Shown: positions 14,918 through 61,213, counted from the first letter of the stretch. The stretch: 64,000 nucleotides of DNA from Candidatus Omnitrophota bacterium (GCA_025453395.1 JALOQK010000004.1:51563-115562), one strand, 5' to 3'. Made by a program: numbers and translations. The notes: generated by a model not told the origin, from the letters alone.

Positions 14918-15076
14918 TTATATCTTCTCAAACATGTCTTTACCCACGCCGCATTCCGGACAGACCCAATCACCGGGCAGGGACTCAAAAGAAGTTCCCG
15001 GGGCTACTCCATTATCCAGATCCCCAACAGCAGGGTCATAGATGTACCCGCAAACAGTGCACTTGTATTTGCTCAT
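14918..15076 (-). CDS. rub: rubredoxin (52 aa; absent from ORF track, below its size cut-off)
   Basis: Minus-strand translation gives [52 protein letters not shown]. It has two CxxCG knuckles and the canonical rubredoxin length. Confidence 0.85.
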
Positions 15077-15130
15077 ATTCACGATCCTCTCTGATACTAC
15101 TTCTTATTTTTCTTTGCTTTCTTTTTCCCC

Positions 15131-21076: not shown

Positions 21077-21223
21077 CTATAATCTTTCGGTTATATAGCT
21101 TTAAAAGAAGCGGGCAGTTTTACGTCGTGCCCAGGACATGTTACTACAGCCCTCTTTGCAGTGCGCTACCGGTCTAAGCATATACTTAATAGTCACATTC
21201 ATCTGGCACCTCCCTCTGGATAA

Positions 21224-21244
21224 ATGATACCACAATAGTATCAT
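21224..21244. promoter_or_regulatory. perfect inverted repeat ATGATAC-N7-GTATCAT in the rrf2-hcp upstream region
   Basis: Seen directly in the sequence. It sits about 150 nt upstream of the rrf2 start codon, in a 186-nt intergenic region. Confidence 0.4.
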
Positions 21245-21262
21245 TTGTCAAGAAAAAAACTT

Positions 21263-27054: not shown

Positions 27055-27284
27055 GCAAGCTCCACAATGATTTTTGCTGCCACCCCATAGCCTATGGCTA
27101 AAGTTGACCTGCCGCATTTAATCGTAACCGGGCCGCGCATAGCAAAATGGTTAAGCTTGGTTACGGTGGTGCCGGGATAAATACCCATACTCATCAAACG
27201 GCTGGCTAAATTACTCCCACCTGATATTTCCAAGATACGCGCTTTCTGATTTTCCTTAAGATGGGCCAAAGAGATCTTTTTCAT
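27051..27284 (-). CDS. feoA: ferrous iron transport protein A
   Basis: 77 aa SH3-like FeoA domain. Confidence 0.8.
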   Translation of the reverse strand: MKKISLAHLKENQKARILEISGGSNLASRLMSMGIYPGTTVTKLNHFAMRGPVTIKCGRSTLAIGYGVAAKIIVELA

Positions 27285-37973: not shown

Positions 37974-37977
37974 ACGC

Positions 37978-38058
37978 TTATCCCAAACAAGGTTTTCTGC
38001 CTTTATTGGCTTTCTTAGAACGCCAGTTTAATTTACCTCTACGTTTACGTTTTCCCAT
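37978..38058 (-). CDS. candidate 26-aa highly basic peptide ([26 protein letters not shown]). Its stop lies 4 nt before the trpB2 ATG
   Basis: ATG preceded by GAAAGGGG, which aligns with the RBS of the doxX leader copy. A 32-aa alternative starts at 38073. It was not in the ORF track (below 60 aa). Confidence 0.25.
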
Positions 38059-38131
38059 ATCTGCCCCTTTCATAGTAATGAACACCGCCCCAGAAAGGGG
38101 CGTACTTTGCCTTCCAATAGGCAAAGGTACG
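38041..38131 (-). repeat. conserved intercistronic dual-hairpin element, copy 2 (GTACCTTTGCC-TATTGGAA-GGCAAAGTAC + GCCCCTTTCTGGGGC + GGTGTTCATTACTATGAAAGGGG)
   Basis: Near-identical hairpin, including the loop, and the GGTGTTCRYTACTRYGAARGGRG tract are shared with 28759-28838. Confidence 0.55.
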
Positions 38132-38135
38132 ACTT

Positions 38136-40812: not shown

Positions 40813-41373
40813 TTACTTACTGTTTTTCCTGCCGAAACAACTGTAAATTGCGGCGGCAGACAAGATCTTCAAGAAATCCCCCGGGATAAAAGGAATTATT
40901 CCCAATAAAACGCCTTGGGTAAAGGATACTTTTAAAGAATTAACTAACCAGAGCGCTCCTGAGATAAGCAGGATCGCCTCTGAGATAAGGAAAAGTAAAA
41001 CAACTCTATGGAACTTGTTGTGGGTAAATTTTATGCAGAAGCCGCAAAATAAAGCTGCCAGGAAAAATCCATATAGATAACCAGCAGTTGGCCCGGCTAA
41101 ATAAAGAAAACCGCTTCCTGCTCCAGAAAAAACCGGAAGGCCCAAAGACCCTATTACTACATACAAAATCTGGGCCAGGCCTGCTTTGCGCGCGCCTAAG
41201 AAACTAGCGCCCAAAAGCACAAAAAATACCTGCAAAGTAAAAGGCACTGGCGTAAATGGCAAAGGGATGCGCACCAGCGCTCCGACGATATTTAGAATAA
41301 CAAGCAGGCTTACGCCAGCCACAGCCAAAAACGCCCTTCTGGAAGAAGCCGCGTTCTTATAAATTAATTCCAT
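40813..41373 (-). CDS. bioY: biotin transporter BioY (ECF S-component)
   Basis: 186 aa with 6 TM helices and BioY conserved blocks. Confidence 0.8.
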   Translation of the reverse strand: MELIYKNAASSRRAFLAVAGVSLLVILNIVGALVRIPLPFTPVPFTLQVFFVLLGASFLGARKAGLAQILYVVIGSLGLPVFSGAGSGFLYLAGPTAGYLYGFFLAALFCGFCIKFTHNKFHRVVLLFLISEAILLISGALWLVNSLKVSFTQGVLLGIIPFIPGDFLKILSAAAIYSCFGRKNSK

Positions 41374-41425
41374 AAATAATCTCCTTCTTATTATTATAAA
41401 TCCTGCGCGCGAAAAGTAAATAAAA

Positions 41426-41617
41426 TTATTCCCTGGCTAAACCCAAAATTACTAAACCGCAAAGCAATAAAACCACGCCGATACAGCCTTTAGCGATTAC
41501 CTTGATAGCGTAAAACCAGTGCATCATCGCCCAAACCCCCGCTGTCACCAAAACTAGGCCCAAAATAAGCTTTAAAAATACGGACAATTTCACTTTGCAC
41601 CTCTCTTTTCTAGCCAT
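41426..41617 (-). CDS. small 2-TM membrane protein (about 54-63 aa)
   Basis: The start is MARKERCK, or the GTG after an AGAGAGG RBS. The upstream part of the ORF-track call is a heptamer repeat that only appears to encode WQIANSKWQ. Confidence 0.35.
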   Translation of the reverse strand: MARKERCKVKLSVFLKLILGLVLVTAGVWAMMHWFYAIKVIAKGCIGVVLLLCGLVILGLARE

Positions 41618-41643
41618 TTGCCATTTGCTATTTGCTATTTGCC
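41613..41643. repeat. tandem heptamer repeat (CATTTGC/TATTTGC)x4
   Basis: Seen directly. It overlaps the lpxL-like stop codon region. Confidence 0.7.
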
Positions 41644-42552
41644 AACTGGGGGTTGGCTCTTCCATCTGCGATGGATCCATCCCCATTCCTGCGGGTACAT
41701 ACGGATATAGCGCTCAATTATATCAGTTAAACGCTGCACATTTAATATAATTGTGTCCTGAGAATTTTTGCCTTCTATCAAAGGGACTTCTTCATCAAAG
41801 ATAATTTTATGCGTATCATCAGCTTGCCTCAGAATAAAGCAAGGCAAAAGAACTGCCCTGGTGCGTTGGGCAAAGATAACCGGGCCTGTGGCAGTAGCTG
41901 CCTTGCGGCCAAAAAAATCCACAAATACCCCGGATGTGCCGAAATTCTGGTCAATAGGCAAGAATATTATCTCGTTATTGCGCAAGGCTTTTATGGTATT
42001 GTCCACGCAGACATTCTTGGGATAACTGTAAATAGTTTTTACCTTATATTTCTCGCGCTTCTCTAAGAATATTTTCTCTACCCGCGCGTCGTGCATCGGG
42101 CGCATGATCCCGCCTATGGCATATCCTTCCAAGCTTAATTTCCCCAGCATAATCGGGAAGTTGCCAAAGTGGCCGCTAACCAAAATCACGCCTCTTTTTT
42201 TTGCTAAAGCCTGATCCAATTTTTCCTTGTTGGCAATGGTTATTCTTTCTTTTAAAAGCCAAGGTTTATCCATCATGAACATAAGCTCTAACGATGCTTT
42301 AGACATAAAGGTAAAACTATCCCGGGCAATTTTCTCTATTTCTGCTTGTGTTTTATCTGGAAAGGCCATGCGCAAACTTTCCAGGGCGATCTTTCTTTGT
42401 CTGGCAATAACCGCATAGCCAAAAGCGGCAATGCCCTTAGCAAAAGGATACAAAAATCTCCAGGGCGTTATGTTTATAATCTTAGCGCAACTAACAAGCC
42501 CAATAAAGGCCAGGAATCGCGAAAATTCTTTTTTCTTCTTTTTAAAATCCAT
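41635..42552 (-). CDS. lpxL: LpxL/HtrB-family lipid A (Kdo2-lipid IVA) acyltransferase
   Basis: 305 aa, N-terminal anchor and LPLAT-like acyltransferase motifs (H..D-type region around SGHFGNF). This assignment is inferred from family resemblance. Confidence 0.7.
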   Translation of the reverse strand: MDFKKKKKEFSRFLAFIGLVSCAKIINITPWRFLYPFAKGIAAFGYAVIARQRKIALESLRMAFPDKTQAEIEKIARDSFTFMSKASLELMFMMDKPWLLKERITIANKEKLDQALAKKRGVILVSGHFGNFPIMLGKLSLEGYAIGGIMRPMHDARVEKIFLEKREKYKVKTIYSYPKNVCVDNTIKALRNNEIIFLPIDQNFGTSGVFVDFFGRKAATATGPVIFAQRTRAVLLPCFILRQADDTHKIIFDEEVPLIEGKNSQDTIILNVQRLTDIIERYIRMYPQEWGWIHRRWKSQPPVGK

Positions 42553-42556
42553 TTGT

Positions 42557-42598
42557 CAGCTATCAGCTTTCAGCTATCAGCTATCAGCTTTCAGCGCA
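42557..42598. repeat. tandem heptamer repeat (TCAGCTW)x6, ending 4 nt before the lpxL start
   Basis: Seen directly: TCAGCTA TCAGCTT TCAGCTA TCAGCTA TCAGCTT TCAGCGC. Confidence 0.8.
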
Positions 42599-42624
42599 TG
42601 GCGCCGTAAACTGTTAACTGTAAA

Positions 42625-43107
42625 CTATAACTTATATCCTATTTTTCTTAAGAGGTCTTTTCGTGATTGTTTTTCCTCTTTTGTTTCCACGCCTTTAGGC
42701 GGCAATCCGTCAATAACTCCTAAAATACCTCTGCCGGAATCTGTTTGGGCGAGAATAACCTCTATCGGGTTAGCGCTGGCGCAATAGATATTACAGACTT
42801 CCGGAACCATTTTAATCGCGTTTAAGACATTAACCGGATACGCGGCTTTTAAGAAAACAATAAAAACATGCCCGCAGGAAACAGCTAAAAGATTATCTTC
42901 TGCAAGCTTCAGAAGCTCTCTGTCATTGCCCTCAAGGCGGATCTTACAAACTCCCGAGGCTTCAGAAAAACCTACAGCAAACTTTACTAACGGGACACTA
43001 TTAACAATTGCCTCATAGATGTCTTCGGCTGTCTTAATGAAATGGCTCTGGCCGATAATTACATTCAAATCATCGGATTTCTTTATCTTTACGGTAACAA
43101 TTTCCAT
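42625..43107 (-). CDS. conserved hypothetical protein (possibly adenosine-specific kinase family, PF04008-like)
   Basis: 160 aa. The assignment rests on remembered family resemblance (..NIYCASANPIEV..GRGILGVIDG..) and is uncertain. Confidence 0.4.
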   Translation of the reverse strand: MEIVTVKIKKSDDLNVIIGQSHFIKTAEDIYEAIVNSVPLVKFAVGFSEASGVCKIRLEGNDRELLKLAEDNLLAVSCGHVFIVFLKAAYPVNVLNAIKMVPEVCNIYCASANPIEVILAQTDSGRGILGVIDGLPPKGVETKEEKQSRKDLLRKIGYKL

Positions 43108-43157
43108 CTTATTCGCCCCCCTATTTTAGGCTACATATTAACATAAGAATGACAGCA

Positions 43158-43316
43158 AATCAATCACCAAACACCAAATTACCTGCCTACCGGCAGGCAG
43201 GCAAACACCAAATAATACCCAATAATCAATAACCAATTAACCAAACAGATTCGGGTATTGGTAATTGGTATTTGGTTATTATTTGGTTATTGTAAACTTG
43301 ATTATTGGTTATTAAA
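43158..43316. promoter_or_regulatory. long imperfect inverted repeat built from ACCAAA(T) / (A)TTTGGTTATT direct repeats, plus a CCTGCC-TACC-GGCAGG hairpin, in the divergent region upstream of the CDF gene
   Basis: Seen directly. TTGGTTATT occurs three times on the right arm, and its complement motifs occur on the left arm. Confidence 0.5.
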
Positions 43317-43319
43317 AAG

Positions 43320-43356
43320 TTGTTACTACCCATAAAATATTGTATAATAATTTTAT
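43320..43356 (+). promoter_or_regulatory. sigma70-like promoter (TTGTTA-17 bp-TGTATAAT) overlapped by the perfect palindrome CCATAAAAT-ATTGTATAATA-ATTTTATGG. The predicted TSS is at or near the ATG at 43355, so the mRNA may be leaderless
   Basis: Seen directly. The palindrome spans 43328-43356 and covers the -10 box and the start codon. Confidence 0.45.
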
Positions 43357-44224
43357 GGAAACAAACGATAATAAGTATAAAACAATCCGCAAGGTTTTAA
43401 TTATTGTGCTTATCTTAAACTGGCTGGTAGCGGGCTTTAAAATTGCCTTTGGCCTATTTACCCGCTGCGCCAGTATGACTGCCGACGGATTCCATTCCCT
43501 TGCTGACGGGGCATCCAATATTATAGGGCTTGCCGGCATCCATTTTGCCAGCCAGCCTAAAGACAGCGACCATCCTTATGGGCACAAGAAATTTGAAACC
43601 TTCTTTACTTTAGGCATCGCGGTATTACTGTTCTTGGTAGCCATAGAATTATTCAAAGAAGGCATCGCCCGCTTAGGCAAACCAGTAACCCCAGAAATAA
43701 ACTTCGCGAGTTTCATTGTCATGATTTCAACCATGATAATCAATATTCTGGTAATGTTATACGAGCGCAACCGCGGCAAAAAACTCTCAAGCGATATCCT
43801 GACTTCTGACGCCCTGCACACAAAAGCGGACATCTTTGTTTCCTTCTCGGTTATTATCACTTTAATACTTATCCAGCGGGGATTCTTCCTGGCTGACGCG
43901 ATTGTCACTTTGGCTATCGCGTTTCTTATCGCTTACAGCGGAATTGGCATCTTAAAAGAAAGTTCGCGTGTTTTATGCGACTCAACAGTATTAGATGATA
44001 AATACATTGAGAAAATTGTTCTTTCTGTGCCGGGAGTGCGCACCTGCCATAAAATACGCACCCGCGGAAGGACTGACGATGTGCATGTAGATTTACATGT
44101 GCAGGTTACCCCCAGCATGCATGTGGATAAAGCGCACACGGTCAGTGACACTATTGAAGAAACGCTAAAAAAAACCCTGCCCGGAGTAACGGATGTAATT
44201 GTGCACATTGAGCCGACTTCTTAA
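43355..44224 (+). CDS. cation diffusion facilitator (CDF) family metal efflux transporter
   Basis: 6 TM helices, the HSLADG motif and a C-terminal cytoplasmic domain with His/Asp. The start is taken at METNDNK; the ORF-track start at 43340 lies inside the -10 box. Confidence 0.8.
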   Translation: METNDNKYKTIRKVLIIVLILNWLVAGFKIAFGLFTRCASMTADGFHSLADGASNIIGLAGIHFASQPKDSDHPYGHKKFETFFTLGIAVLLFLVAIELFKEGIARLGKPVTPEINFASFIVMISTMIINILVMLYERNRGKKLSSDILTSDALHTKADIFVSFSVIITLILIQRGFFLADAIVTLAIAFLIAYSGIGILKESSRVLCDSTVLDDKYIEKIVLSVPGVRTCHKIRTRGRTDDVHVDLHVQVTPSMHVDKAHTVSDTIEETLKKTLPGVTDVIVHIEPTS

Positions 44225-45696
44225 AGAACAAATAAAATTACCCCCGCCAAAGTCACAAACACATCCCCATAGCGGGTGTAAAAAGTATTTCTCAAGGCGC
44301 AATCCTGAAATTGACAGCTACTAAAACCACCTATAAAAGTATTTTCCCCGCCTTTTTCTACCAAAGACAATATCTTTCCTGAAGGCGCGATAAAACCTGA
44401 AATCCCGGTATTGGCAGAACGCGCCAGGAATACCCTGTTCTCCAGCGCCCTGAAAACTGAAGCCTGCAAATGCTGCCGGGGCGCAGAAGTTTTCTTATAC
44501 CAGGCGTCATTGGTGATATTCACCAAAAGCCCCGCGCCTTGCTTTACAAAAGAACGCGCCAGCTCCGGGAATAGATCCTCAAAACAGATCAACACTGCGC
44601 ATTTAACAGAAAAACTTGCCTTCTTGGCGGCAACAGGAAACAATGTGTAATCTTTCCCCGGGCTAATATCGCCTATCGGAGCAATGGATTCTAAGAAAGG
44701 AAATACGCCGCGAAAGGGAATATATTCTCCAAAGGGCACAAGGTGCAGCTTGTTGTATACAGCTAAAATATCGCTTTTAGCGGATAAAAGAAGCGCGCTA
44801 TTATAATATTTTTGATTTTCTGTCCTGACTGCGCCTAAAAGAAGCTGCGATCTTAGCCCACGGTTAAAATCCTGAACAAGCTTAAAATATCGCGGCTGTT
44901 CTTCCAATACTACCGGCAAGGCCGCCTCCGGCCAGATAATCAAATCCGGATTATCCGTTCCTGATAAACGCGCGGTTGTTTCCATGAATCTGGCCATAAT
45001 AAAATCGCGATTATCCTCGGACCACTTTAATTCTTGGTCTATATTGGACTGGACAACCCCTAAGTTTAAATCAAGTTTCTGGCTTAAACTATTTACCTTG
45101 TTTAATCTTATAAACCCATAAAAGAGTACTGCCAATAAAACTACAACTGCTACTAACGCCTGCTTCAGGCGCAAATTTAAAGATATTTCTTTTTGCAATA
45201 GAATAAACACCCCGGCATTGACCAGAACAATAACAAAAGAAACCCCGTAAACGCCTGCCAAATCAGCTACCTGAATAAAGGGAAGATTTAAATATTGAGA
45301 ATAGCCTAAACTTGCCCAGCCAAACCCGGTAAAAAGATGCGCCCTTGTGTATTCTAAAACAGACCAGGCCCCCGGGAGAATCCATAAAATACGCATCGGG
45401 CTTTTTTTGTTCAGGAAAACCGCGGTTAAAACCCCGAAAACCCCGAAATAACAACAAAGATAGGCAATTAAAACCACTGTCCCTAAGAAAGTTACATGCA
45501 CCAGCCAATAGATCGCCCCCCACCAAAATATCATTCCCGATAGATAGGCGATAAAAAATGATTTTATAAGCGGCTGTTTTCTTAAAGCAAAGAAAAGCGG
45601 CACAAAGGCAACGAATGCTAAATAGGAAAGATTAAAATCCGGAAAGGAAAGAAAAAGTAAAATCCCTGAAAAGGAAGCTAAAATAAAAGGGAACAA
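44221..45696 (-). CDS. lnt: apolipoprotein N-acyltransferase
   Basis: N-terminal multi-TM domain plus a nitrilase/CN-hydrolase domain (E..K..C triad region). It has a TTG start with a GAGGT RBS. Confidence 0.8.
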   Translation of the reverse strand: MFPFILASFSGILLFLSFPDFNLSYLAFVAFVPLFFALRKQPLIKSFFIAYLSGMIFWWGAIYWLVHVTFLGTVVLIAYLCCYFGVFGVLTAVFLNKKSPMRILWILPGAWSVLEYTRAHLFTGFGWASLGYSQYLNLPFIQVADLAGVYGVSFVIVLVNAGVFILLQKEISLNLRLKQALVAVVVLLAVLFYGFIRLNKVNSLSQKLDLNLGVVQSNIDQELKWSEDNRDFIMARFMETTARLSGTDNPDLIIWPEAALPVVLEEQPRYFKLVQDFNRGLRSQLLLGAVRTENQKYYNSALLLSAKSDILAVYNKLHLVPFGEYIPFRGVFPFLESIAPIGDISPGKDYTLFPVAAKKASFSVKCAVLICFEDLFPELARSFVKQGAGLLVNITNDAWYKKTSAPRQHLQASVFRALENRVFLARSANTGISGFIAPSGKILSLVEKGGENTFIGGFSSCQFQDCALRNTFYTRYGDVFVTLAGVILFVL

Positions 45697-45711
45697 ATCA
45701 TTACCTCGTTT

Positions 45712-45746
45712 TCAGCTATCAGCTGTCAGCCTTCAGCTATCAGCTA
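45712..45746. repeat. tandem heptamer repeat TCAGCTA TCAGCTG TCAGCCT TCAGCTA TCAGCTA between the secA stop and the lnt RBS
   Basis: Seen directly. It is almost identical to the copy at 59416-59450. Confidence 0.8.
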
Positions 45747-48662
45747 TTTTCCACAGCACTTCTTATATTTCTTCCCCGAGCCGCAAGGACAAGGTTGGTT
45801 TCTGCCGACTTTTTCCGAAGTTGCCTGTTGCTGCGCAACCGGGGCATTTATATTACTACCTGTATCTCCGGGCGCCTGGCCTTGCTCTGGAAACCCTTCG
45901 GCATCAGGATGCAACATGCGCTGTGAACGCGCTGAGAAAACCTGTTTGAATTTTTCCTGCTGGCTCTGGGGCTGGAGTTTAAAAATAATCTCTGCCGCCT
46001 CTTCTTCAATGGTGGCAATCATTTCCGCAAACATCTCAAAGGCCTCGCGCTTATATTCAATCAAGGGGTCGCGCTGGCCATAGGCGCGAAGCCCAATCCC
46101 CTCTCTTAAACTATCCATGGCGTAAAGGTGCTCTTTCCATTTGGTATCAATAATCTGCAAGAAGACCATGCGCTCTAAATGCCTAAGCATCTTTTCGCCG
46201 ATAGCCTGCTCTTTATTATTGTAATACTCTTGGGCCTTCTCCAGTAAATAGACAGCGGCGTCTTTGGCAGATTTCTCAAAGTCTTTCTTTTCAATTTCTA
46301 TGCCCAATTTAAGCCGCATCTCATCAAATACCACCTGAAAATCACGCGCTTCCGGGTCATTCTCCGAGGCTACATAGGCATTTACCTTTTCTTCAATTAT
46401 TTTACCGGCGACATCAAGAATGCTATCTTTAAGCGAAAGCCCCTCTAAAACATCTCTTCTTTGGGCATAAATAACCTCACGCTGCTTATTCATCACATTG
46501 TCATAATCCAATAATTGCTTGCGAATTTCAAAATTATGCTGCTCCACGCGCTTTTGCGCCACCTCAATGGATCTAGTTACCCAAGGATGCTCAATAACCT
46601 GGCCCTCTTCCAAACCTAAAGCAGCCATCATGCCGCTAATCTTATCTGAACCGAACAAGCGCATCAGATTATCTTCAAGGGAAATATAAAAACGCGATGA
46701 CCCCGGGTCACCCTGCCTGGCGCAGCGGCCGCGCAGCTGATTATCAATACGCCTTGCCTCATGGCGTTCAGTAGCTAAAACATGTAAACCGTCTAAAGCA
46801 ACCACCTGCTCATGCTCTTTAAGGCAGGACTGCTTGAAATCCTGCAGGGCCTTCTTAACCTGGTCATTATAATCCGGGGCCTCTTGATCTAACTTATGCT
46901 GAATAAAACTTTTAGCTAGGAAATCCGGATTGCCCCCTAAAAGTATATCTGTGCCGCGGCCAGCCATATTTGTGGCAATGGTCACGGCTTTATAATGGCC
47001 TGCCTGCGCCACAATTTGCGCTTCTCTTTCATGATGTTTAGCATTTAAAACTTCATGTTCTATCCCGCGCATCTTTAACATCTCTGAAAGCTTTTCGGAT
47101 TTATCAATGGATACTGTCCCCACTAATACGGGCCTGCCTTTTTCATGCAATTCACAGATTTCATCTACCACTGCTTTAAATTTCTCTTTTTCCGTGCGGT
47201 AAATACAATCCGGATAATTATGACGGATCAAGGGCCGGTTGGTAGGAACATTGACCACGTCCAGCCGGTATATATCCTTGAATTCATTGGCCTCGGTAGA
47301 AGCTGTGCCGGTCATGCCGGAAAGCTTCTCATACATACGGAAGTAATTCTGAAAAGTCACTGTAGCTAAAGTTTGGTTTTCCCGCTCAATCTTAATGCCT
47401 TCTTTTGCCTCTACCGCCTGGTGCAGGCCATCGGACCAGCGCCTTCCGGGCATCATTCTTCCGGTAAACTCATCCACAATGATAACTTCGCCGTCCTTAA
47501 CCACATAATCCACGTCGCGCTGGAAGAATTCTTTAGCGCGCAAGGCCTGAATAGTATGGTGCCTGAATTCCATAGTATCAATATTATGCAGGCTTTCTAC
47601 CCCCCAAAGTTTTGCCGCGCGGGATTCTCCGTCTTCAGTCAAAGATATCGTCCTTGCTTTCTCGTCGGCGAGATATTCATACCCTTTGGTTAAATCAATC
47701 CCTTTGTGCTTGGCATTAATCTCATCTTTCTCAAGCACTCTTCTGCCCTTTAAAGAATCAGCGATATGCCGGGCAGTATAATATTTATCGGTTGCCTCTT
47801 CAGCCGGGCCGGAAATAATTAGCGGGGTGCGCGCTTCATCAATCAAGATTGAATCCACTTCATCCACAATCGCAAAATAAAAACCTCTCTGCACAAGATC
47901 TTCAAGGTTGTATTTCATATTATCGCGCAGATAATCAAAACCAAACTCGTTGTTGGTGCCATAGGTAATATCGCAATTATAAGCGGCCTGTCTTTCCTGG
48001 TCATCCATTTCATGCTGAATAACCCCCACGGTTAAACCTAAGAATTCAAACACCGGCCCCATCCATTCCCGGTCGCGTCTGGCTAAATAATCATTGACCG
48101 TAACAATATGCACGCCCTTGCCTAAAAGCGCGTTTAAATAAGCTGCCAATGTTGCTACAAGGGTCTTCCCTTCTCCGGTGGACATTTCAGAGATTTTCCC
48201 CTCGTGCAAAATAACCCCGCCGGCTATCTGCACATCAAAATGCCTCAAACCGATGGCGCGCTTAGAGGCTTCTCTTACTACGGCAAAACTTTCTGCCAAG
48301 ATATCTTCAAAGATTTTATTGCGGGTGGATTTTATTTTCTCTTTGATGCGGTCCTTCTCCTCGGGTATAGCTACTTCAAAAAGCTCTGCCTCTAACTGTT
48401 CTATCTGAGAGGCGCATTCCCTGGCCTTATCGGAAATGTGTTGCCTGAAATAATCTGTTTTCTCTTTTAACTGCGCATCGCTTAAACCAGAAATTGTTTC
48501 TTCAAAGGAATTTACTTTATAGACTATCCCCGCCAAATCCGCCATTTTGCTCATTGATGGAGATGGCATATCCGGATGCAAAACAATATTGACTCCGGGA
48601 AAATTCTTTACAATGCCGCCCTGCTTGCTTTTTAACACCTGCTGTTTAATCCATCCGAACAT
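45744..48662 (-). CDS. secA: preprotein translocase ATPase SecA
   Basis: DEAD-motor motifs, the preprotein cross-linking domain and the C-terminal zinc-binding tail CPCGSGKKYKKCCG. 972 aa. Confidence 0.95.
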   Translation of the reverse strand: MFGWIKQQVLKSKQGGIVKNFPGVNIVLHPDMPSPSMSKMADLAGIVYKVNSFEETISGLSDAQLKEKTDYFRQHISDKARECASQIEQLEAELFEVAIPEEKDRIKEKIKSTRNKIFEDILAESFAVVREASKRAIGLRHFDVQIAGGVILHEGKISEMSTGEGKTLVATLAAYLNALLGKGVHIVTVNDYLARRDREWMGPVFEFLGLTVGVIQHEMDDQERQAAYNCDITYGTNNEFGFDYLRDNMKYNLEDLVQRGFYFAIVDEVDSILIDEARTPLIISGPAEEATDKYYTARHIADSLKGRRVLEKDEINAKHKGIDLTKGYEYLADEKARTISLTEDGESRAAKLWGVESLHNIDTMEFRHHTIQALRAKEFFQRDVDYVVKDGEVIIVDEFTGRMMPGRRWSDGLHQAVEAKEGIKIERENQTLATVTFQNYFRMYEKLSGMTGTASTEANEFKDIYRLDVVNVPTNRPLIRHNYPDCIYRTEKEKFKAVVDEICELHEKGRPVLVGTVSIDKSEKLSEMLKMRGIEHEVLNAKHHEREAQIVAQAGHYKAVTIATNMAGRGTDILLGGNPDFLAKSFIQHKLDQEAPDYNDQVKKALQDFKQSCLKEHEQVVALDGLHVLATERHEARRIDNQLRGRCARQGDPGSSRFYISLEDNLMRLFGSDKISGMMAALGLEEGQVIEHPWVTRSIEVAQKRVEQHNFEIRKQLLDYDNVMNKQREVIYAQRRDVLEGLSLKDSILDVAGKIIEEKVNAYVASENDPEARDFQVVFDEMRLKLGIEIEKKDFEKSAKDAAVYLLEKAQEYYNNKEQAIGEKMLRHLERMVFLQIIDTKWKEHLYAMDSLREGIGLRAYGQRDPLIEYKREAFEMFAEMIATIEEEAAEIIFKLQPQSQQEKFKQVFSARSQRMLHPDAEGFPEQGQAPGDTGSNINAPVAQQQATSEKVGRNQPCPCGSGKKYKKCCGK

Positions 48663-48663
48663 T

Positions 48664-49768
48664 TTAATTTGCTCCTTGCGCCTGTAATTTTAAGAAGGCT
48701 TCAATAAAACCCCAGATTTTACCATCTAAAACTGCCGCGGTATCCGCTGTCTCATAATCACTTCTGTGGTCCTTAACCATGTTATAAGGATGCAGCACAT
48801 AAGAGCGGATTTGGCTGCCCCATTCAATCTTTTTCTTAGGCGTTCCACAGGTTTTTGTTAAAGCAGCCTCCTGCTCCTGCTGCTTTTGCTGATAAATGCG
48901 CGCTTTTAATATGTTTAAAGCCACCTGCTTATTTTGATGCTGCGAACGCTCATTCTGGCATTGCGCGGCTAAGCCGGTAGGGATATGGGTAATCCTGACC
49001 GCGGAATCCGTAGTATTGACGCTTTGCCCTCCGGCGCCTGATGAACGAAAAACATCAATGCGTAAATCTTTTTCTTCAATTTTGAAATCCACTTCTTCCA
49101 CTTCAGGGATAGCATCCACTGAAGCAAAAGAAGTATGCCTTCTTTTATTAGCGTCAAAAGGCGAAATACGCACCAGCCTATGCACCCCGCGTTCTGCCTT
49201 TAAATATCCGTAGGCATAAGGGCCTTCGACAAGAACAGTAACATTCTTTATCCCTGCCTCTTCTCCAAGCAAAATATCCAAAACCTTGAAAGTAAATTCT
49301 TTGCTTTGCGCGAAACGGCTGTACATCCTGAAAAGCATCTCTACCCAATCGCAGGATTCTGTGCCGCCGGCTCCGGAATTAATACTTAAGATGCAGTTAT
49401 TTTTATCAAATTCACCAGATAAAAGAGTGTGAAACTCCAAGCGGTTGGTTTCTTCAATAATAGAATCAAGGGTCGCCTCTATCTGGCGGATAAAACTTTG
49501 CTCCTCGCCTTCGGACAGCTCAAGAAGCTCTTTTGTCTCTGTTGCCCGGAAATACAACTCGTCCCAAGGCTGGACAATGTTCTTTAAAACTTTGATTTGC
49601 TTAACAACCTTTGTGGAATTATCCTGATTATCCCAAAATCCTTCCTGGGACATCTGCGCGTTAAGCTGTCTGATCTTCTCTTTATTCTTATCTACATCAA
49701 AGATAACCTCGTAGTTGCTGGAGGCGGGCTTGAATGGCTGAAAGCTGATCTTTTATTTCTTCAAACAT
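48664..49768 (-). CDS. prfB: peptide chain release factor 2 with programmed +1 frameshift (the ORF track shows only the post-shift part)
   Basis: The frame-0 segment MFEEIKDQLSAIQARLQQLRGYL ends at an in-frame TGA within the CTT TGA T context (around 49697-49705). The +1 frame continues as DVDKNKEKIRQLNAQMSQEGFW... The SPF and GGQ motifs lie downstream, and a GAGGAG RBS lies upstream of 49768. Confidence 0.9.
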
Positions 49769-56412: not shown

Positions 56413-57198
56413 TTAAGAACCTAGAAGATTTTCAGCGTTTTTATATAATATGCGCTCATGAAGAATCTGGGGCAGGCCCAATCTCGCCAAATACTCCAGG
56501 TCTTGCGCCTGGTCCACCAAAGGAAAATCCGTGCCAAATAATAACCTGTCCGGACGATGGCTGAAAAGAAGATCCCTTACTTTTTGATCCGGCAGAAATC
56601 CAAAGAAAAAAGAGGTGTCCAGGTATATATCTTCGCCCACAAGATATTTTTCAGCTTCTTCCCAAAGCTTAAACCCTCCAAAGTGCGCGGCAATTATTTT
56701 AAGCTTAGGGAATGCTTTCTTGATATTAATTATTCTTTTCCCGGAGGAACGCACCAGCATTGTCCCGGAAAGCTCTTCCCCGCAATGAAAAAGAACCGGT
56801 ATCTCCAATTCTTCCATGACTTGGTACATCGGAAAAGCCTTTTGATCATCGGCATAAAAGCCCTGAAATTCCGGCTGAAGCTTTACCCCATCCCCATTAA
56901 CTCTTATACGATTAAGCTCATTCTCCCATTGCGGATAATCCGGATGCATAGAACAGAACACCCGGTAACGCCTGCTTTTAATCCCGAAAAGCCAGTCGTT
57001 AATAGAGGGTACCTGTTGCGGCTTGGTGGCTACCGCGCAGATTACACTTGTATCAATATGATTCTTAAGCATGAATTTATCAAGAGTGTTTAAGGTGGGC
57101 ATGCCCACCATCTTATGCTGAAAAAGAGACTCTAGGTGTTCTCGGGCACGCTCTGCCACCTTATCCGGCCAGGCATGGGTATGCATATCAATGATCAT
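56413..57198 (-). CDS. amidohydrolase-2 family TIM-barrel metal-dependent hydrolase
   Basis: HTHAW N-terminal metal-binding motif and FGTDFP C-terminal motif. Confidence 0.7.
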   Translation of the reverse strand: MIIDMHTHAWPDKVAERAREHLESLFQHKMVGMPTLNTLDKFMLKNHIDTSVICAVATKPQQVPSINDWLFGIKSRRYRVFCSMHPDYPQWENELNRIRVNGDGVKLQPEFQGFYADDQKAFPMYQVMEELEIPVLFHCGEELSGTMLVRSSGKRIINIKKAFPKLKIIAAHFGGFKLWEEAEKYLVGEDIYLDTSFFFGFLPDQKVRDLLFSHRPDRLLFGTDFPLVDQAQDLEYLARLGLPQILHERILYKNAENLLGS

Positions 57199-57632
57199 AC
57201 TAATTCCTGGACTTCAACGTCGGTTAAAACGCTAAAACCTGCTTTGCGCACGATTTTTTCAGCGTCTTTAATATTTTTCTCCGGAATCTCTAAGATACAA
57301 ATTCCTTTTTCTTTCGGCTGCATAACAAAACCATGGGCATCCACAATATTTATCTTGTGCCCAGACAGAACATCGGTTAATTTATACAGATTCCCGGCTT
57401 TATCTTTTATAGAAACTGCCAGGACATCCTTCATTGCCGAGGCAAAGCCGCTTTCAGTAAGCGCCAATTGCGCCTGTTTAGGATAATCAACAAATAATTT
57501 CATCATCCCGAAATCGCCCCTGTCCTGAATGGTAAAACCGATAATATTGATTTTCTTCTCGGAAAGGACTTTAGAAACAGATTTTAACCTTCCCGGACGG
57601 TTCTCAATGAAAATATTAAGTTGTTTAGCCAT
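57195..57632 (-). CDS. tandem ACT-domain protein
   Basis: Two approximately 70 aa ACT-like repeats. It is paired with the PaaK-like ligase. Confidence 0.7.
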   Translation of the reverse strand: MAKQLNIFIENRPGRLKSVSKVLSEKKINIIGFTIQDRGDFGMMKLFVDYPKQAQLALTESGFASAMKDVLAVSIKDKAGNLYKLTDVLSGHKINIVDAHGFVMQPKEKGICILEIPEKNIKDAEKIVRKAGFSVLTDVEVQELV

Positions 57633-57644
57633 TATTGCCCCCTT

Positions 57645-58961
57645 TTATAATTTATCGCGGTTATCCACTACGCGTTTGGCTTTTCCTTCAAATTCCGGCA
57701 ATACCCCGGGCTCATGAAGCTCTATCACTGGGCTTATAATAATAGAAGCCCGCAATTCATTCTTGATCTTCTCTTTGATCGTGTCCAATTGAGCAACATC
57801 TCCGGTAAAAAGCTTAGAGTATATTTCTACCTTAACAATAAGTTTATCCAGGGTGCCTTCTTTTTCCAGATGGATCTGGTAATTATTCCCCACTTCCGGG
57901 ATGCGCATGATTATTTCTTCAATCTGCGAAGGATACATATTCACGCCGTTAACGATAAGCATATCATCGGTTCTTCCGGTAATCCGCGAGATCCTGCGGT
58001 GCGTGCGCTTACATTTACAGGCACCCTTATAGACAAAAGCCAAATCTCTTGTGCGATAGCGCAATAACGGAGTTGCGCGGCGGGTAAGATGGGTTAAAAC
58101 AATTTCTCCTTCTTTTTCTTCAGGCAGGATATTGCCTGTCTTAGGGTCAATTACCTCCAGGATATAGCTATCTTCCCACAAATGCATTCCGTTTTTATAG
58201 ACACACTCAAAACTTACCCCCGGGCCGTTTAGCTCGCTTAGGCCGTAAGAATTATAGACATCAATATCATAAAGAGCCTCTATCTTTTTGCGCGTATTAT
58301 CTGAATACGGCTCTGCCCCGACATAGGCCTTCTTCAGGCAAAGGTCTTTCTTGCTGAATCCGCATTCTTCCAGCTTTGAATATATATGCAAAAGATAACT
58401 CGGAGTGGCATGCACGACGGTGGCCTTAAAATCTTTCATCAAAGAAAGTTGACGCTTGGTATTTCCTGCCGAAGATGGAATAACTGTTAACCCCGCGCGC
58501 TCTGCCCCATAATGAAGCCCCAGGCCTCCGGTAAAAAGCCCATAGGTCATCATATTCTGGAAAATATCATTCTTGTCGGCGCCGGTTGCGATAATACAGC
58601 GGGCCACCAATTCCGCCCAGTGCTTGATATCTTCTTGGGTATGGTAAATTACCGTGGGGGTGCCGGTAGTCCCGCTTGAAGTATGCACCCTGACCACATC
58701 CTGCATATTTACCGCCAGCAGGCCATTGGGGTAACACTGCCTTAAATCATCTTTACTGGTAAAGGGGATGCGTTTTAAGTCATCAAGCGATTTTATGTCG
58801 GATGCCGAACGGATGCCGGCTTTTTTCAGGCGGTGGTTGTAAAAAGCAGTATGCATCGCGTAATGCACAGACTGCTTAAGATGCGCCAGCTGCATCTTTT
58901 TTAATTCTTGCGCGCTTAAGGTTTCGGTATTCTTATCCCAATAAAATATTTCTTTAGGCAT
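57645..58961 (-). CDS. paaK: phenylacetate--CoA ligase family (PaaK-like aryl/acyl-CoA ligase)
   Basis: Adenylate-forming motifs SSGTTGTPT and YGLSE. 438 aa. Confidence 0.85.
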   Translation of the reverse strand: MPKEIFYWDKNTETLSAQELKKMQLAHLKQSVHYAMHTAFYNHRLKKAGIRSASDIKSLDDLKRIPFTSKDDLRQCYPNGLLAVNMQDVVRVHTSSGTTGTPTVIYHTQEDIKHWAELVARCIIATGADKNDIFQNMMTYGLFTGGLGLHYGAERAGLTVIPSSAGNTKRQLSLMKDFKATVVHATPSYLLHIYSKLEECGFSKKDLCLKKAYVGAEPYSDNTRKKIEALYDIDVYNSYGLSELNGPGVSFECVYKNGMHLWEDSYILEVIDPKTGNILPEEKEGEIVLTHLTRRATPLLRYRTRDLAFVYKGACKCKRTHRRISRITGRTDDMLIVNGVNMYPSQIEEIIMRIPEVGNNYQIHLEKEGTLDKLIVKVEIYSKLFTGDVAQLDTIKEKIKNELRASIIISPVIELHEPGVLPEFEGKAKRVVDNRDKL

Positions 58962-58964
58962 AGT

Positions 58965-59396
58965 TTAAAGATTGACAATTTCTTCTTTTCCGATAACCCG
59001 GATCTTATTTTTCTTTAATAAGGCGACTGCCTTGTCCGGCTGGTCAAAGCGTAAAACAAGAAGCGCGTTTTTGGAGAATTTTTCCACAAATCCGTACATA
59101 TATTCAAGGTTGATCCCGTCCTGGGATAAAACCTTTAATATCCCGGCCAATCCTCCGGGAGAGTCATCTACTTCAATAGCCACAATATCGCTTAGATGCA
59201 CTACAAACCCCTGTTTCTTAAGGGCTTTTAGCGCCTGCTGCGGCTTATCTACTACAATCCTTAAAATACCAAAATCCTGCGTCTCAGCAATAGTAAGCGC
59301 GCGGATATTGATTTTATTCTTTCCTAAAATATCGCAGACTTCATAGAGCCTGCCCTTGCGATTCTCTAAGAATATGGAAATTTGAGTTATCGTCAT
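58965..59396 (-). CDS. tandem ACT-domain protein
   Basis: Paralog of 57195-57632. Confidence 0.7.
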   Translation of the reverse strand: MTITQISIFLENRKGRLYEVCDILGKNKINIRALTIAETQDFGILRIVVDKPQQALKALKKQGFVVHLSDIVAIEVDDSPGGLAGILKVLSQDGINLEYMYGFVEKFSKNALLVLRFDQPDKAVALLKKNKIRVIGKEEIVNL

Positions 59397-59415
59397 CTCT
59401 TTCCCCTTTCATTTT

Positions 59416-59450
59416 ATCAGCTTTCAGCTGTCAGCCTTCAGCTATCAGCT
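59416..59450. repeat. tandem heptamer repeat TCAGCTT TCAGCTG TCAGCCT TCAGCTA TCAGCTA between the paaK stop and the ACT-protein RBS
   Basis: Seen directly. Confidence 0.8.
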
Positions 59451-60750
59451 AAAGAATTCTTTTATCTATAACTCTTTTGGCTTTTCCTTCGCTTCGCTCA
59501 AGGACCTTAGGCTCAACAAGCTTAACTTTCACAAAAACACCAAGCACGGATTCAATTTCTTTCTTAATCTTGTCGGAAAGCGCGCTCAAACTCTTCATTT
59601 CATCAGAAAAGAATTTATCTTCCACTTCCACCAAAACTTCCAGCTCATCCATGTCGCCGACTTTTCGATCTACCACAAGCTGATAATGCGGTTTAGTCCC
59701 TTCAATGCCCAGAAGAACGTGCTCAATCTGCGACGGGAAGACATTGATCCCGCGCACAATGATCATATCATCTGTGCGGCCTTTGATCTTGCTTATGCGC
59801 GGGGATGTCCTCCCGCAACGGCATTTTTCATACTTTATAGAAACAATATCCCGCGTGCGATAACGCAATAAAGGAAGCCCTTCTTTGATAAGCGTAGTAA
59901 TAACTAATTCCCCGAATTCACCTTCTTTTACCTCTTTGCCGGTTTTGGGGTTTATTATTTCGGGATAAAAAACATCCGAAAAAATATGTAAACCCTTTTT
60001 ATGCTGGCATTCCTGGGCCACTCCCGGCCCGATGACTTCAGATAAGCCGTAAACATCCGTAGCAAGAATATTCCATGTTTTTTCTATTTCGCCTCTCATG
60101 GTCTCGCTCCACGGCTCTGCCCCAAAGACCCCCACTTCCCAACTGCTTTCTTTAGGGTTTAATCCCATTTCCCGGGCTTCTTCTGACATATACAAACAAT
60201 AACTGGGCGTGCAGGCTAAAATCCTGGGCTTAAAATCATTCATGATCTTTAACTGCCTTTTGGTTTGCCCCGATGAAGCAGGGATTACCGTTAACCCCAT
60301 CTCAAGAGCCCCATAATGAAAACCTAATCCTCCGGTAAACAAACCATAGCCATAGGCAATCTGGATAATGTCCCCCGGAACAGCTCCAGCGCAGCCTAAG
60401 ACGCGCGCCATCACTTCTGACCAAAGCCCTAAATCTTCTTTGGTGTAACCAACTACCGTGGGATTGCCGGTCGTCCCGCTTGAGACATGGATCTCGGCTA
60501 TGTCTTTAAGAGGGCTTGAAAAAAGATTGAAAGGGTAACTATCGCGCATGTCTTCTTTGGTGGTAAAAGGAATCTTTTTCAAATCACGCAAATCCTGTAT
60601 ATCCGAAGGGCGCACTCCAGCTGCTTCTAATTTCTTGCGGTAGAGTTTGTTATTATCCCAGATATACTGCACTTTTTTGCGCAAGCGTTCAGACTGCAGA
60701 ATTTGCATTTCTCCAGCAGACATACATTCCATATTCTCATTCCAAATCAT
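59449..60750 (-). CDS. paaK: phenylacetate--CoA ligase family, second paralog
   Basis: SSGTTGNPT and YGLSE motifs. The start is taken at MIWNENMECMS, abutting the iorB stop. Confidence 0.85.
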   Translation of the reverse strand: MIWNENMECMSAGEMQILQSERLRKKVQYIWDNNKLYRKKLEAAGVRPSDIQDLRDLKKIPFTTKEDMRDSYPFNLFSSPLKDIAEIHVSSGTTGNPTVVGYTKEDLGLWSEVMARVLGCAGAVPGDIIQIAYGYGLFTGGLGFHYGALEMGLTVIPASSGQTKRQLKIMNDFKPRILACTPSYCLYMSEEAREMGLNPKESSWEVGVFGAEPWSETMRGEIEKTWNILATDVYGLSEVIGPGVAQECQHKKGLHIFSDVFYPEIINPKTGKEVKEGEFGELVITTLIKEGLPLLRYRTRDIVSIKYEKCRCGRTSPRISKIKGRTDDMIIVRGINVFPSQIEHVLLGIEGTKPHYQLVVDRKVGDMDELEVLVEVEDKFFSDEMKSLSALSDKIKKEIESVLGVFVKVKLVEPKVLERSEGKAKRVIDKRIL

Positions 60751-61213
60751 CTTGCCCTCTCTTCCTGCCTTCTTTAAATATTTTTTTGTTTTCTTCTGGA
60801 GCGCGACCTGCAAATTCCTGCTCTATTGATTTAATCCAATTTTCCTCTTTTATCTTAAGATGCGCGGATAAAACCCCCAGTAAAAATGTATTGGCGTATT
60901 TTCTATCCTTAAGCTTATTTACTTCTTCTAAATAGCGGCTAAGGTTTACTCCTTCTTTTTTAAGAAACCCTGCAAGCCGCGCTTCTTCATCCGCATGCAT
61001 AGAAACCAAGAAATCCGCCTGGCCGTAAGGGATAAGGGGAGAAAAAATCTCTTTGCCGAAGCGAAGATGCGATTCTACTGACCCTCCGCGCTGGGCCATG
61101 CCATGCACCTCGGATTTCTTAACATGAAACCCGTCAAACATGCAGGCTACCGCGCAAATTTCCGCCATCTTTAAAATCCCCTGCCCGCCTGTGCCGCAAA
61201 AAAGTATATTCAT
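60737..61213 (-). CDS. iorB: indolepyruvate ferredoxin oxidoreductase subunit beta
   Basis: GTGGQG motif of the 2-oxoacid:ferredoxin oxidoreductase gamma-like family. 158 aa. Confidence 0.85.
   Translation of the reverse strand: MNILFCGTGGQGILKMAEICAVACMFDGFHVKKSEVHGMAQRGGSVESHLRFGKEIFSPLIPYGQADFLVSMHADEEARLAGFLKKEGVNLSRYLEEVNKLKDRKYANTFLLGVLSAHLKIKEENWIKSIEQEFAGRAPEENKKIFKEGRKRGQDDLE

Follow-up and report, generated by a model that had tools for sequence, protein, structure and literature searches.

What are the short heptanucleotide tandem arrays that fill three gaps between genes in this stretch of Candidatus Omnitrophota DNA, and what role, if any, do they play in the expression of the genes on either side? 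Bacterial intergenic heptamers were described decades ago in cyanobacteria, and later proved to be the commonest long simple repeat in bacteria. An initial annotation of the window (the whole 64,000-nt stretch analyzed here) had drawn attention to three arrays with the unit TCAGCTN and to a fourth array with a different unit, and had put forward landing pads for RNA-binding proteins, modulators of translational coupling and slippage-prone contingency loci as possible roles. In this work we analyze the sequence, gene context and predicted folding of these arrays, follow their unit through related loci, metagenomes and viral contigs, and compare them with the repeat systems that they most resemble.

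Heptamer arrays and their gene junctions

Direct reading of the sequence and Tandem Repeats Finder agree that the three TCAGCTN arrays are real (Table 1). They are detected as period-7 repeats of 5.7, 5.1 and 4.9 copies with 81-90% matches, and a three-unit pattern, which occurs at three loci in the 64 kb, has 0 matches in 100 dinucleotide-preserving shuffles. The interval first given for array 2 (45712-45746) is exact and those given for arrays 1 and 3 were each one base off. The tandems had been described as perfect, and they are in fact interrupted: units differ at position N and once at another position, and the longest uninterrupted run is shorter than three units. Within the unit, which reads NAGCTGA on the strand of the genes, the AGCT core is palindromic and position N is free. 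When up to two mismatches are allowed, TCAGCTNTCAGCTNTCAGC has 10 overlapping matches in the whole window, all on the plus strand and all within arrays 1-3, and no NAGCTGA doublet occurs in the window outside these arrays. Repeats with at least 3.4 copies number seven in the window, comprise four unit types and have a period of 7 throughout (Tandem Repeats Finder). With at least three head-to-tail 7-nt units at several dispersed, non-coding loci, the arrays belong to the class of bacterial intergenic heptanucleotide tandem repeats.

Table 1. Repeat arrays, predicted folds and neighboring genes in the window. Coordinates are counted from its first nucleotide, genes were identified with Pfam, and z-scores rest on shuffling, which is a weak control for the folding energy of a repeat.
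Feature	Coordinates	Strand	Units, product or position	Predicted fold
Array 1	42556-42597	TCAGCTN on +, genes on -	+ strand: TCAGCTA TCAGCTT TCAGCTA TCAGCTA TCAGCTT TCAGCGC; mRNA sense (-): GCGCUGA AAGCUGA UAGCUGA UAGCUGA AAGCUGA UAGCUGA; 6 units, first degenerate; Tandem Repeats Finder 5.7 copies, 90% matches	
Array 2	45712-45746	TCAGCTN on +	+ strand: TCAGCTA TCAGCTG TCAGCCT TCAGCTA TCAGCTA; mRNA sense (-): UAGCUGA UAGCUGA AGGCUGA CAGCUGA UAGCUGA; 5 units	sense -13.8 kcal/mol, z -3.4; antisense -10.3, z -2.8
Array 3	59417-59451	TCAGCTN on +	+ strand: TCAGCTT TCAGCTG TCAGCCT TCAGCTA TCAGCTA; mRNA sense (-): UAGCUGA UAGCUGA AGGCUGA CAGCUGA AAGCUGA; 5 units	sense -12.8 kcal/mol, z -3.7; antisense -10.3, z -3.2
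Fourth array, other unit	41613-41644	-	(GCAAAUN)4.6, mRNA sense; 4.6 copies, 92%	little predicted structure
Second heptamer array	42606-42630	-	(AGUUNAC)3.6, mRNA sense; overlaps UAG stop (42625-42627) of adenosine-kinase-like gene	
Array 1 gap hairpin	42553-42637	-		sense -28.9 kcal/mol, z -3.2; antisense -14.0, z -0.2
lpxL-type gene	41635-42552	-	lipid A acyltransferase; downstream of array 1	
Adenosine-specific-kinase family gene	42625-43107	-	PF04008; upstream of array 1	
lnt	44221-45696	-	apolipoprotein N-acyltransferase; downstream of array 2	
secA	45744-48662	-	972 aa; upstream of array 2	
ACT-domain-pair protein gene	58965-59396	-	downstream of array 3	
AMP-binding gene	59449-60813	-	CoA-ligase-like; upstream of array 3	

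Arrays 2 and 3 are almost identical, as had been noted: in register they share 34 of 35 nucleotides on the mRNA strand, their variant units follow in the same order (U, U, A-GG, C, U/A), and their flanks are unrelated to each other. An identity that includes the variant units makes the two look like copies of one block, and the sequences point to block copying or to strong convergent selection; independent slippage does not predict a shared order of this kind.

Each array lies between co-directional genes and occupies most of its gap, the gaps measuring 72, 47 and 52 nt for arrays 1, 2 and 3. Since the genes around the arrays are all on the minus strand, the local mRNA would read (NAGCUGA)n, as the initial annotation had stated, and such a unit places UAG and UGA stops in all three frames. 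The further claim that the arrays sit between the stop of one gene and the ribosome-binding site of the next stands as far as their intercistronic position is concerned; at two of the three, the stop lies inside the array, and lpxL has no recognizable ribosome-binding site or Shine-Dalgarno (SD) sequence. The first UAG of array 2 (45744-45746) is the stop codon of secA, and the first UAG of array 3 (59449-59451) is that of the AMP-binding ligase gene. Of the 57 stops in the window only 10 are TAG, and most SecA orthologues that share this C-terminus terminate with TAA; the array therefore supplies the stop. The nearest other SecA is 72% identical to that of the source contig, a sequence of 122.5 kb (JGI 3300037461 Ga0392394_0000032, also in the NCBI MAG that encodes MCU0666531.1). 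The fourth array, with its different unit and equivalent position, is also real. It contains the UAG stop of lpxL (41635-41637), and past the array come GAGAGG and the in-frame GTG (41593) that opens a small ORF.

The distance from the end of the array to the next start is 3 nt for array 1, 15 nt for array 2 and 20 nt for array 3. In the LpxL-type protein the Pfam match already begins with the second residue, which fixes the ATG at 42552 as the start. Array 2 is followed by AAAAC-GAGG-N7-TTG, with the TTG start of lnt at 45696, and array 3 by a purine-rich ribosome-binding site and the ATG of the ACT gene at 59396. We considered the SD-less start of lpxL as a special feature and discounted it, because only about 35-55% of the genes in the window are preceded by an SD-like motif. 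In a paralogous ligase-ACT pair (57195-58961), at a distance of 1.3 kb, the two genes are separated by 12 nt and no array is present. The single orientation of the arrays is correct as an observation (3/3 in the window) and carries little weight: the two-sided p is 0.25 and, with 62 of 69 long ORFs on the minus strand and a uniformly negative GC skew, nearly all genes lie on one strand, so that array orientation is confounded with replication strand.

We regard it as extremely improbable that the arrays are an assembly artefact or a slippage-prone contingency (phase-variation) locus. The Logan assembly of SRR12684589 is 100% identical to the window in two stretches, one of 6.4 kb that spans array 3 and another totalling 17.9 kb outside it, which means that the arrays are not the product of one assembler; the run may be the same read set as the source, and the identity therefore says nothing on strain variation. 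Each array is, in addition, shorter than one sequencing read. A contingency locus would draw support from one example in the wider family, a homogeneous run that differs by one unit between samples (5 vs 4 identical units). The other orthologous arrays in different samples are almost all identical, many of the pairs being overlapping segments of one contig, and in one orthologous pair with flanks 88-93% identical the arrays agree at 51 of 52 positions, the sole change falling at N. Apart from the short perfect runs, the position of the window arrays between a stop and the next start also argues against this role, since a 7-nt change there alters neither reading frame nor promoter spacing, as do the housekeeping functions of the neighbors (secA, lnt, lpxL). 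Phase variation was likewise judged unlikely for the analogous repeats of Xanthomonas (PMC4692102).

Predicted RNA folds and other signals

The AGCU core is self-complementary and, where N is U, the flanks of the core contribute G.U pairs. Arrays 2 and 3 are predicted to fold on themselves, with the variant AGGCUGA placed in a loop of 8 nt whose stem is closed by a G-C pair from the C variant. At array 1, the predicted hairpin combines two repeats: its 5' arm is (AGUUNAC)3, within a second heptamer array, (AGUUNAC)3.6, that can pair through wobbles with the units at the beginning of array 1; a GC-rich apical stem-loop follows (GGCGCC-AUG-CGCUG region), and the 3' arm consists of NAGCUGA units. 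The stem uses G.U pairs, and for this reason the sense fold is stronger than the antisense fold. Another locus, L119, was considered as a carrier of the same long hairpin and rejected: its composite architecture is similar (79% mean column identity), but it has no fold.

Searches for established signals gave little. Rfam 15 produced no match at the gathering threshold in the window and none at E <=1 in 41300-46000, and a tRNA search returned no matches. No terminator-like site was detected at any array, the tails being AAAACGAGG, UAAAAUG and CAAAUGG, and arrays 2 and 3 showed no promoter-like consensus. The one promoter-like match near array 1 is weak (9/12; 42651-42624) and lies over the stop of the upstream gene; region-wide counts of such matches are below shuffle expectation. 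In the family as a whole, at least five T in the next 8 nt were found for 12% of paired arrays (among the matches listed), and U-rich tails are thus too rare for most family elements to be classical terminators. On this evidence, terminators and promoters were rejected as an explanation.

The dependence of the array 1 hairpin on the sense strand is also relevant to whether the element acts at the level of DNA, either as a palindrome of the REP/BIME kind mobilized by a dedicated enzyme or as a site for a DNA-binding protein (a nucleoid, replication or phage regulator). Enterobacterial REP/BIME elements are imperfect palindromes of ~35 nt that lie in intercistronic or 3' positions in operons, are transcribed and dispersed, and stabilize mRNA; REP elements have a GTAG foot, an associated RAYT (Y1) transposase and no heptamer periodicity. 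The NAGCTGA arrays resemble them as imperfect palindromes with predicted hairpins in intercistronic DNA, and differ in having heptamer periodicity. We consider a DNA-level element very unlikely. It would be in keeping with the block identity of arrays 2 and 3 and its sharp borders, with the palindromic AGCT / TCAGCTGA core, with the many copies per viral contig and with the strict polarity of inverted pairs in the family, which is a strand-symmetric property. It sits poorly with the long hairpin of array 1, which through its G.U pairs is predicted in sense RNA only, and with inverted-pair spacers that are not conserved between elements. Near the window copies, moreover, there is no target-site duplication, terminal signature or transposase, and none of the 10 proteins scanned with Pfam is a transposase.

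The NAGCTGA family and other heptamer repeats

A four-unit pattern was found in at least 120 metagenome stretches, with G+C from 0.37 to 0.73, and in 106 viral stretches, some viral contigs carrying more than 10 arrays. One Elusimicrobiota locus has an array, and in a Rariglobus (Opitutaceae, Verrucomicrobiota) an aldehyde-dehydrogenase-like ORF contains an array, oriented so that it brings no stops. Judged by their sequence, the three arrays in the window are copies of this widespread NAGCTGA heptamer family, a new sequence family of a known class. Our literature search found no description of NAGCTGA arrays, and the unit only in MacGregor's table of non-repeated variants.

Among the matches listed, most copies of the unit form inverted pairs with a single polarity, 5'-(TCAGCTN)n, a spacer of 0-110 nt, (NAGCTGA)n-3', with 79 unique pairs of this polarity against 3 of the opposite one. 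An ATG that opens at least 80 codons lies no more than 12 nt past the NAGCTGA-reading end in 24 of 132 single arrays, compared with 5 of 132 for the other end (p = 2.6e-4; among the matches listed), and, within the same scope, forward arrays abut start codons with no room for a Shine-Dalgarno sequence in 24/132 single and 28/142 paired arrays. Where a gene ends beside a family array, TCAGCTN lies 3-10 nt past the stop. Polarity and start proximity agree: the NAGCUGA side is turned toward the start that comes next, while UCAGCUN comes after the stop of the preceding gene. Array 1 fits that architecture, its 5' arm being degenerate, and in one viral contig an inverted-pair element with a predicted fold of -60 kcal/mol occupies the 94-nt gap between two co-directional ORFs. 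The N positions of inverted-pair arms are complementary at a frequency of 0.40 (0.44 by chance); in the lack of any excess, the hairpin has no covariation support. A universal forward orientation was rejected, given that single arrays between co-directional genes elsewhere comprise 57 in reverse and 30 in forward orientation (among the matches listed). Of the paired and single family arrays, only 68/292 are homogeneous at N, while the other six positions stay fixed throughout the family; the method by which arrays were detected contributes to this.

The initial annotation had regarded heptamers as mainly cyanobacterial and as unusual in a genome of this kind, and this did not hold. As Mrazek 2007 is cited in two later papers (PMC4679880, PMC4692102), no other long simple repeat is as abundant as heptamers in most bacterial genomes, and polymerase slippage was proposed as their cause. 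Repeats of at least 4 copies in 80 Omnitrophota/Elusimicrobia loci and the window comprise 26 arrays of period 7, followed by period 3 (11), period 8 (10), period 5 (7), period 4 (3), period 6 (2) and period 14 (1). The period-7 arrays of the 80 related loci have many unrelated units, most of them without self-fold (about 0 kcal/mol). The secA-lnt junction illustrates this variety. In locus L001 it carries the heptamer AGGTGTC, which begins inside the stop codon, in L005 the heptamers AGTCCAT/AGTTGAT and in L019 a weak array; in most relatives the junction is tight and without an array. No fold was obtained for the junction arrays of L001 and L005 (z +1.1 and -0.9). With these two arrays and most related heptamers unfolded, the hairpin is not what keeps heptamers at such junctions, and the idea that all gene-junction heptamer arrays self-fold was rejected. 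Heptamer arrays thus arise or persist at such junctions whatever their hairpin potential, which is in keeping with slippage biased towards period 7. NAGCTGA differs from the units of L005 and L001 by one to two changes, and the secA-lnt arrays may therefore descend from one old array with concerted unit change.

Such variety is what would be expected if the arrays were a neutral by-product, generated in non-coding DNA by replication slippage biased towards period 7 and devoid of function, with stop-rich arrays surviving only in post-stop gaps and in this orientation. We see this as a possible explanation, if on the unlikely side. The general abundance of heptamers and the proposal of slippage (Mrazek 2007 as cited in PMC4679880 and PMC4692102), the dominance of period 7 with many unrelated units in the 80 related loci, and the presence of other units, or mostly none, at the secA-lnt junction of relatives are all compatible with it. 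So are the frequent adjacency of unlike heptamer arrays, the one-unit length difference in a homogeneous run, and the coding constraints that force a stop-rich array into an intergenic position. It leaves unpredicted the shared order of variant units in arrays 2 and 3, and does not readily explain why the same unit recurs across the full range of G+C (among the matches listed), why the family is dense in compact viral contigs, or why so few arrays are homogeneous at N when six positions stay fixed, part of which reflects the array-finding method. The 79:3 polarity of inverted pairs and the start proximity of the forward end are also strongly non-random among the matches listed.

Four known systems offer points of comparison. 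The cyanobacterial STRR heptamers, reportedly described by Mazel et al. in 1990, form arrays that are often much longer than those of NAGCTGA. Judging in part from summaries in PMC4679880 and PMC4692102, the two have in common a period of 7, tandem and intergenic arrangement at many loci, and several, often adjacent, unit families per genome; they differ in their units and in the phyla that carry them. A Nostoc preprint reports that heptamer repeats affect expression, and gives no mechanism.

Closest in sequence are the TAACTGA repeats of marine Beggiatoaceae, described by MacGregor in 2015 (PMC4679880) as 169 sets of 2-6 copies and found also in some Cyanobacteria and Bacteroidetes. Almost all of these sets are intergenic and forward toward a start codon, often a few nucleotides away and without a ribosome-binding site; they sometimes overlap the end of the upstream ORF and are often 'split' by a related 7-mer, and their neighbor genes share no function (PMC4679880). 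Two stop codons per unit give TAACTGA stops in all three frames. Translational regulation was proposed for these repeats, which are predicted to be unstructured, and binding of S1, Csp or a CsrA-like protein was suggested; TAGCTGA is listed among the one-base variants, occurs in that genome without repetition and would form a stem-loop (PMC4679880). The NAGCTGA arrays, whose units are mostly TAGCTGA and thus one base off, resemble the TAACTGA repeats in copy number, interruption by a related 7-mer, all-frame stops, a forward direction toward the start, neighbor genes without a common function and, in some cases, overlap with the upstream ORF end. In contrast to TAACTGA, NAGCTGA self-pairs through AGCT, with predicted folds of -12.8 to -13.8 kcal/mol, is mostly arranged in inverted pairs of one polarity, where TAACTGA in BOGUAY has a single inverted case, and occurs in other phyla, namely Omnitrophota, Verrucomicrobiota and Elusimicrobiota, and in viral contigs.

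The GGGAATC / GGGGA(C/T)T heptamers of Xanthomonas and Nostoc were described by Rehm et al. in 2015 (PMC4692102). Those of Xanthomonas, about 186 per genome, mostly have four units, are 89-93% intergenic at a mean of 28 nt past the upstream ORF, include 70-75 inverted pairs per genome, are transcribed and have no link to gene classes (PMC4692102). Both families consist of dispersed heptamers with a fixed core and degenerate positions that lie in intergenic DNA near the upstream ORF end and form convergent pairs able to adopt stem-loops. The GGGAATC repeats differ in being G-rich and forming G-quadruplexes, whereas NAGCTGA is without a G-tract; neither stop-codon content nor start-codon proximity is reported for GGGAATC.

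The last comparison concerns a protein. HutP, which acts on the Bacillus hut leader, recognizes XAG triplets with 4 nt between them, and each face of the protein takes three (PMC2425495). NAGCTGA arrays likewise present at least three consecutive NAG triplets at 7-nt spacing, in which the first base is free. HutP sites differ in belonging to one regulatory leader with a non-conserved 4-nt spacer, while NAGCTGA is dispersed and its CUGA is conserved. By analogy, the NAG-N4 periodicity may serve as a clue to a reader protein, and is only a lead.

A further idea is that the arrays are recognized by the ribosome or by an RNA-binding protein with sequence specificity, constituting a post-transcriptional regulon read by S1, Csp, a CsrA-like protein or a HutP-like ring. 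We deem this unlikely as an account of the family. The unit is one base from TAACTGA and has the same position relative to start codons (PMC4679880), a free base precedes AG as in the triplets read by HutP (PMC2425495), forward arrays abut starts with no SD room among the matches listed, and the lpxL ATG follows array 1 at 3 nt with no SD. The CUGA 'spacer', on the other hand, is conserved as strongly as AG, SD-less starts are common in the window, and elsewhere the arrays occur in reverse and as paired stems, which would hide single-stranded sites. No candidate reader protein emerged from the 74 kb of genome covered. Binding sites of this kind also overlap with a structured RNA cis-element, from which they differ only in the active form.

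Possible function of the arrays

The evidence leads us to prefer, tentatively and with slightly less than even confidence, the reading that the arrays are a transcribed intercistronic RNA element, combining a hairpin with all-frame stops, that would act as an insulator or modulator; transcription, folding in vivo and an effect on expression are inferred. An RNA-level role, as a protein landing pad or a coupling modulator, had been among the initial proposals, and it is still the best class of explanation. Given such a role, the hairpin is probably, by a modest measure, the active form, and there is a substantial chance, somewhat short of even, that the array serves as a binding site for a protein or the ribosome.

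Under the preferred reading, the arrays would have arisen through 7-nt slippage, with at least arrays 2 and 3 probably copied as a block, and would be transcribed within polycistronic mRNAs. UAG and UGA would then be presented in three frames directly past the upstream gene, whose own stop is provided by the array in two of the three cases. A stem-loop would occupy the gap just before the next start, formed by self-folding of arrays 2 and 3 and, at array 1, by pairing with the second heptamer array. Such a module would end all upstream translation, and may set the stability of the upstream mRNA segment, the access of ribosomes to the downstream start, or both.

The reading of the arrays as an RNA element is favored in the window by the nearly filled gaps, the lack of terminator-like sites, the use of the first UAG as the upstream stop, the stronger sense folds and the 34/35 identity of arrays 2 and 3. 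In the family it is favored by the wide occurrence of the unit, the pair polarity and start proximity among the matches listed, the viral 94-nt element and the orthologous pair that changes only at N, and in the literature by the TAACTGA repeats, which are likewise forward and just before start codons (PMC4679880). It is disfavored by the weakness of shuffling as a folding control, a window orientation that is inseparable from the replication strand, the reverse single arrays found elsewhere, the lack of covariation, the unfolded heptamers at secA-lnt and the array-free junctions.

A bolder form of the RNA-element reading holds that NAGCTGA constitutes a strictly polar and hitherto undescribed family of RNA cis-elements. 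Its members would be either single arms or hairpins with heptamer arms, the NAGCUGA side toward the start, and would spread by block copying and have a dedicated reader in Omnitrophota, Verrucomicrobiota, Elusimicrobiota and their phages. We regard it as distinctly improbable. The candidate factors that come to mind are a ring-shaped reader of NAG triplets 7 nt apart and a double-strand RNase. If this bolder form were true, the family would represent a global post-transcriptional punctuation signal of operons with a reach comparable to that of REP/BIME.

The NAGCTGA family adds several elements to the study of bacterial intergenic heptamers. Its unit is one base from that of the only heptamer family with a start-codon association, and it combines a palindromic core with predicted hairpins on the sense strand. 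Across hundreds of environmental and viral loci, its arms show a polarity of 79:3 and starts lie directly past the NAGCTGA end (among the matches listed). Its polarity rule and its occurrence in phage-like contigs had not been observed before, and the family brings a known class into new phyla. For genome annotation, the practical point is that essential genes, secA among them, take their stop codon from the first unit of a repeat. Since some Opitutaceae are in culture and the family is present both in them as a group and in phage-like contigs, the function of heptamer repeats could be approached with reporter and RNA-binding experiments.

A local cluster of heptamer repeats

Of the seven heptamer arrays in the 64-kb window, six crowd into 4.2 kb, where they make up a local period-7 hot spot with four different units. 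(AATAACC)n and (GGTTATT)n form an inverted pair of arrays in the gap from which the adenosine-kinase-like gene and a CDF cation-efflux gene diverge. On each strand the pair has a predicted fold of about -44.6 kcal/mol, with z values of -5.2 and -4.4. A GC-rich palindrome adjoins this pair. On the source contig itself (L203), about 1-2 kb ahead of the window start, a PfkB kinase gene is separated from a YqeY gene by a gap that contains another inverted pair of arrays, the A/T-rich (AATTAAA)6 and (TTTTTAA)6.

Coordinates of the repeat arrays and genes described
Feature	Sequence	Position	Strand
Hot spot	window	41600-45800	
Hot-spot arrays	window	41613, 42556, 42606, 43214, 43257, 45712	
(AATAACC)n/(GGTTATT)n pair	window	43207-43300	
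Palindrome CCTGCCTACCGGCAGGCAGG	window	43182-43203	
(AATTAAA)6/(TTTTTAA)6 pair	L203	11647-11690, 11839-11883	
prfB (release factor 2)	window	48664-49768	-
prfB first ORF	window	49697-49768	
prfB main ORF	window	48664-49653	
Apparent gap with rubredoxin-like ORF	window	14918-15082	-
Long gaps	window	21077-21262, 27118-27283, 37974-38135	
Ligase-ACT pairs	window	57195-60813	-
(TCAGCTC)4	L103	4915-4940	
Array-1-like composite	L119	2335-2440	-

Coding features of the window

The window prfB carries the classic programmed +1 frameshift: its 23-codon first ORF ends in CTT TGA with an SD-like GAGG ahead of it, and the main ORF contains the SPF and GGQ motifs. One apparent gap accommodates an ORF of 54 aa that is rubredoxin-like and has CxxC...CPxC motifs, and three further long gaps look like small ORFs, not non-coding DNA. 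The AMP-binding ligase and ACT-pair protein genes form two paralogous pairs in tandem, with a heptamer array at the first ligase-ACT junction only, the second junction being 12 nt long.

NAGCTGA/TCAGCTN arrays in other contigs

An unrelated metagenome contig (L119) presents a composite that matches window array 1, located between the adenosine-kinase-like gene and lpxL, in the order of its elements: (ANTTTAC)3, a GC-rich segment, (NAGCTGA)4 and, after 5 nt, ATG. Mean column identity between the two composites is 79% over about 100 nt; RNA folding did not predict the long hairpin of array 1 in the L119 composite. On a Rariglobus (Verrucomicrobiota) contig, (TCAGCTC)4 falls within an aldehyde-dehydrogenase-like ORF in a stop-free orientation and would encode a SALSSQL-type repeat.

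Two viral contigs, IMGVR_UViG_3300005541_000016 (L213, L253, L272) and IMGVR_UViG_3300044798_000503 (L223, L233, L234, L262, L281, L283), carry at least 10 NAGCTGA/TCAGCTN arrays each, approximately one per intergenic gap, and many of these are hairpins with a small CGCG-N4-6-CGCG stem in their loops.

In eight loci (L139, L185, L110, L121, L177, L242, L292, L309) NAGCTGA arrays are immediately adjoined by arrays of other heptamers (GGAGGCT, GGGCTAA, CAGGCTT, GAGAAGA, GGGAGCT, CTCCGCT, GCGGATT, TTCCGCC), and this abutment suggests that new heptamer units are generated in place.
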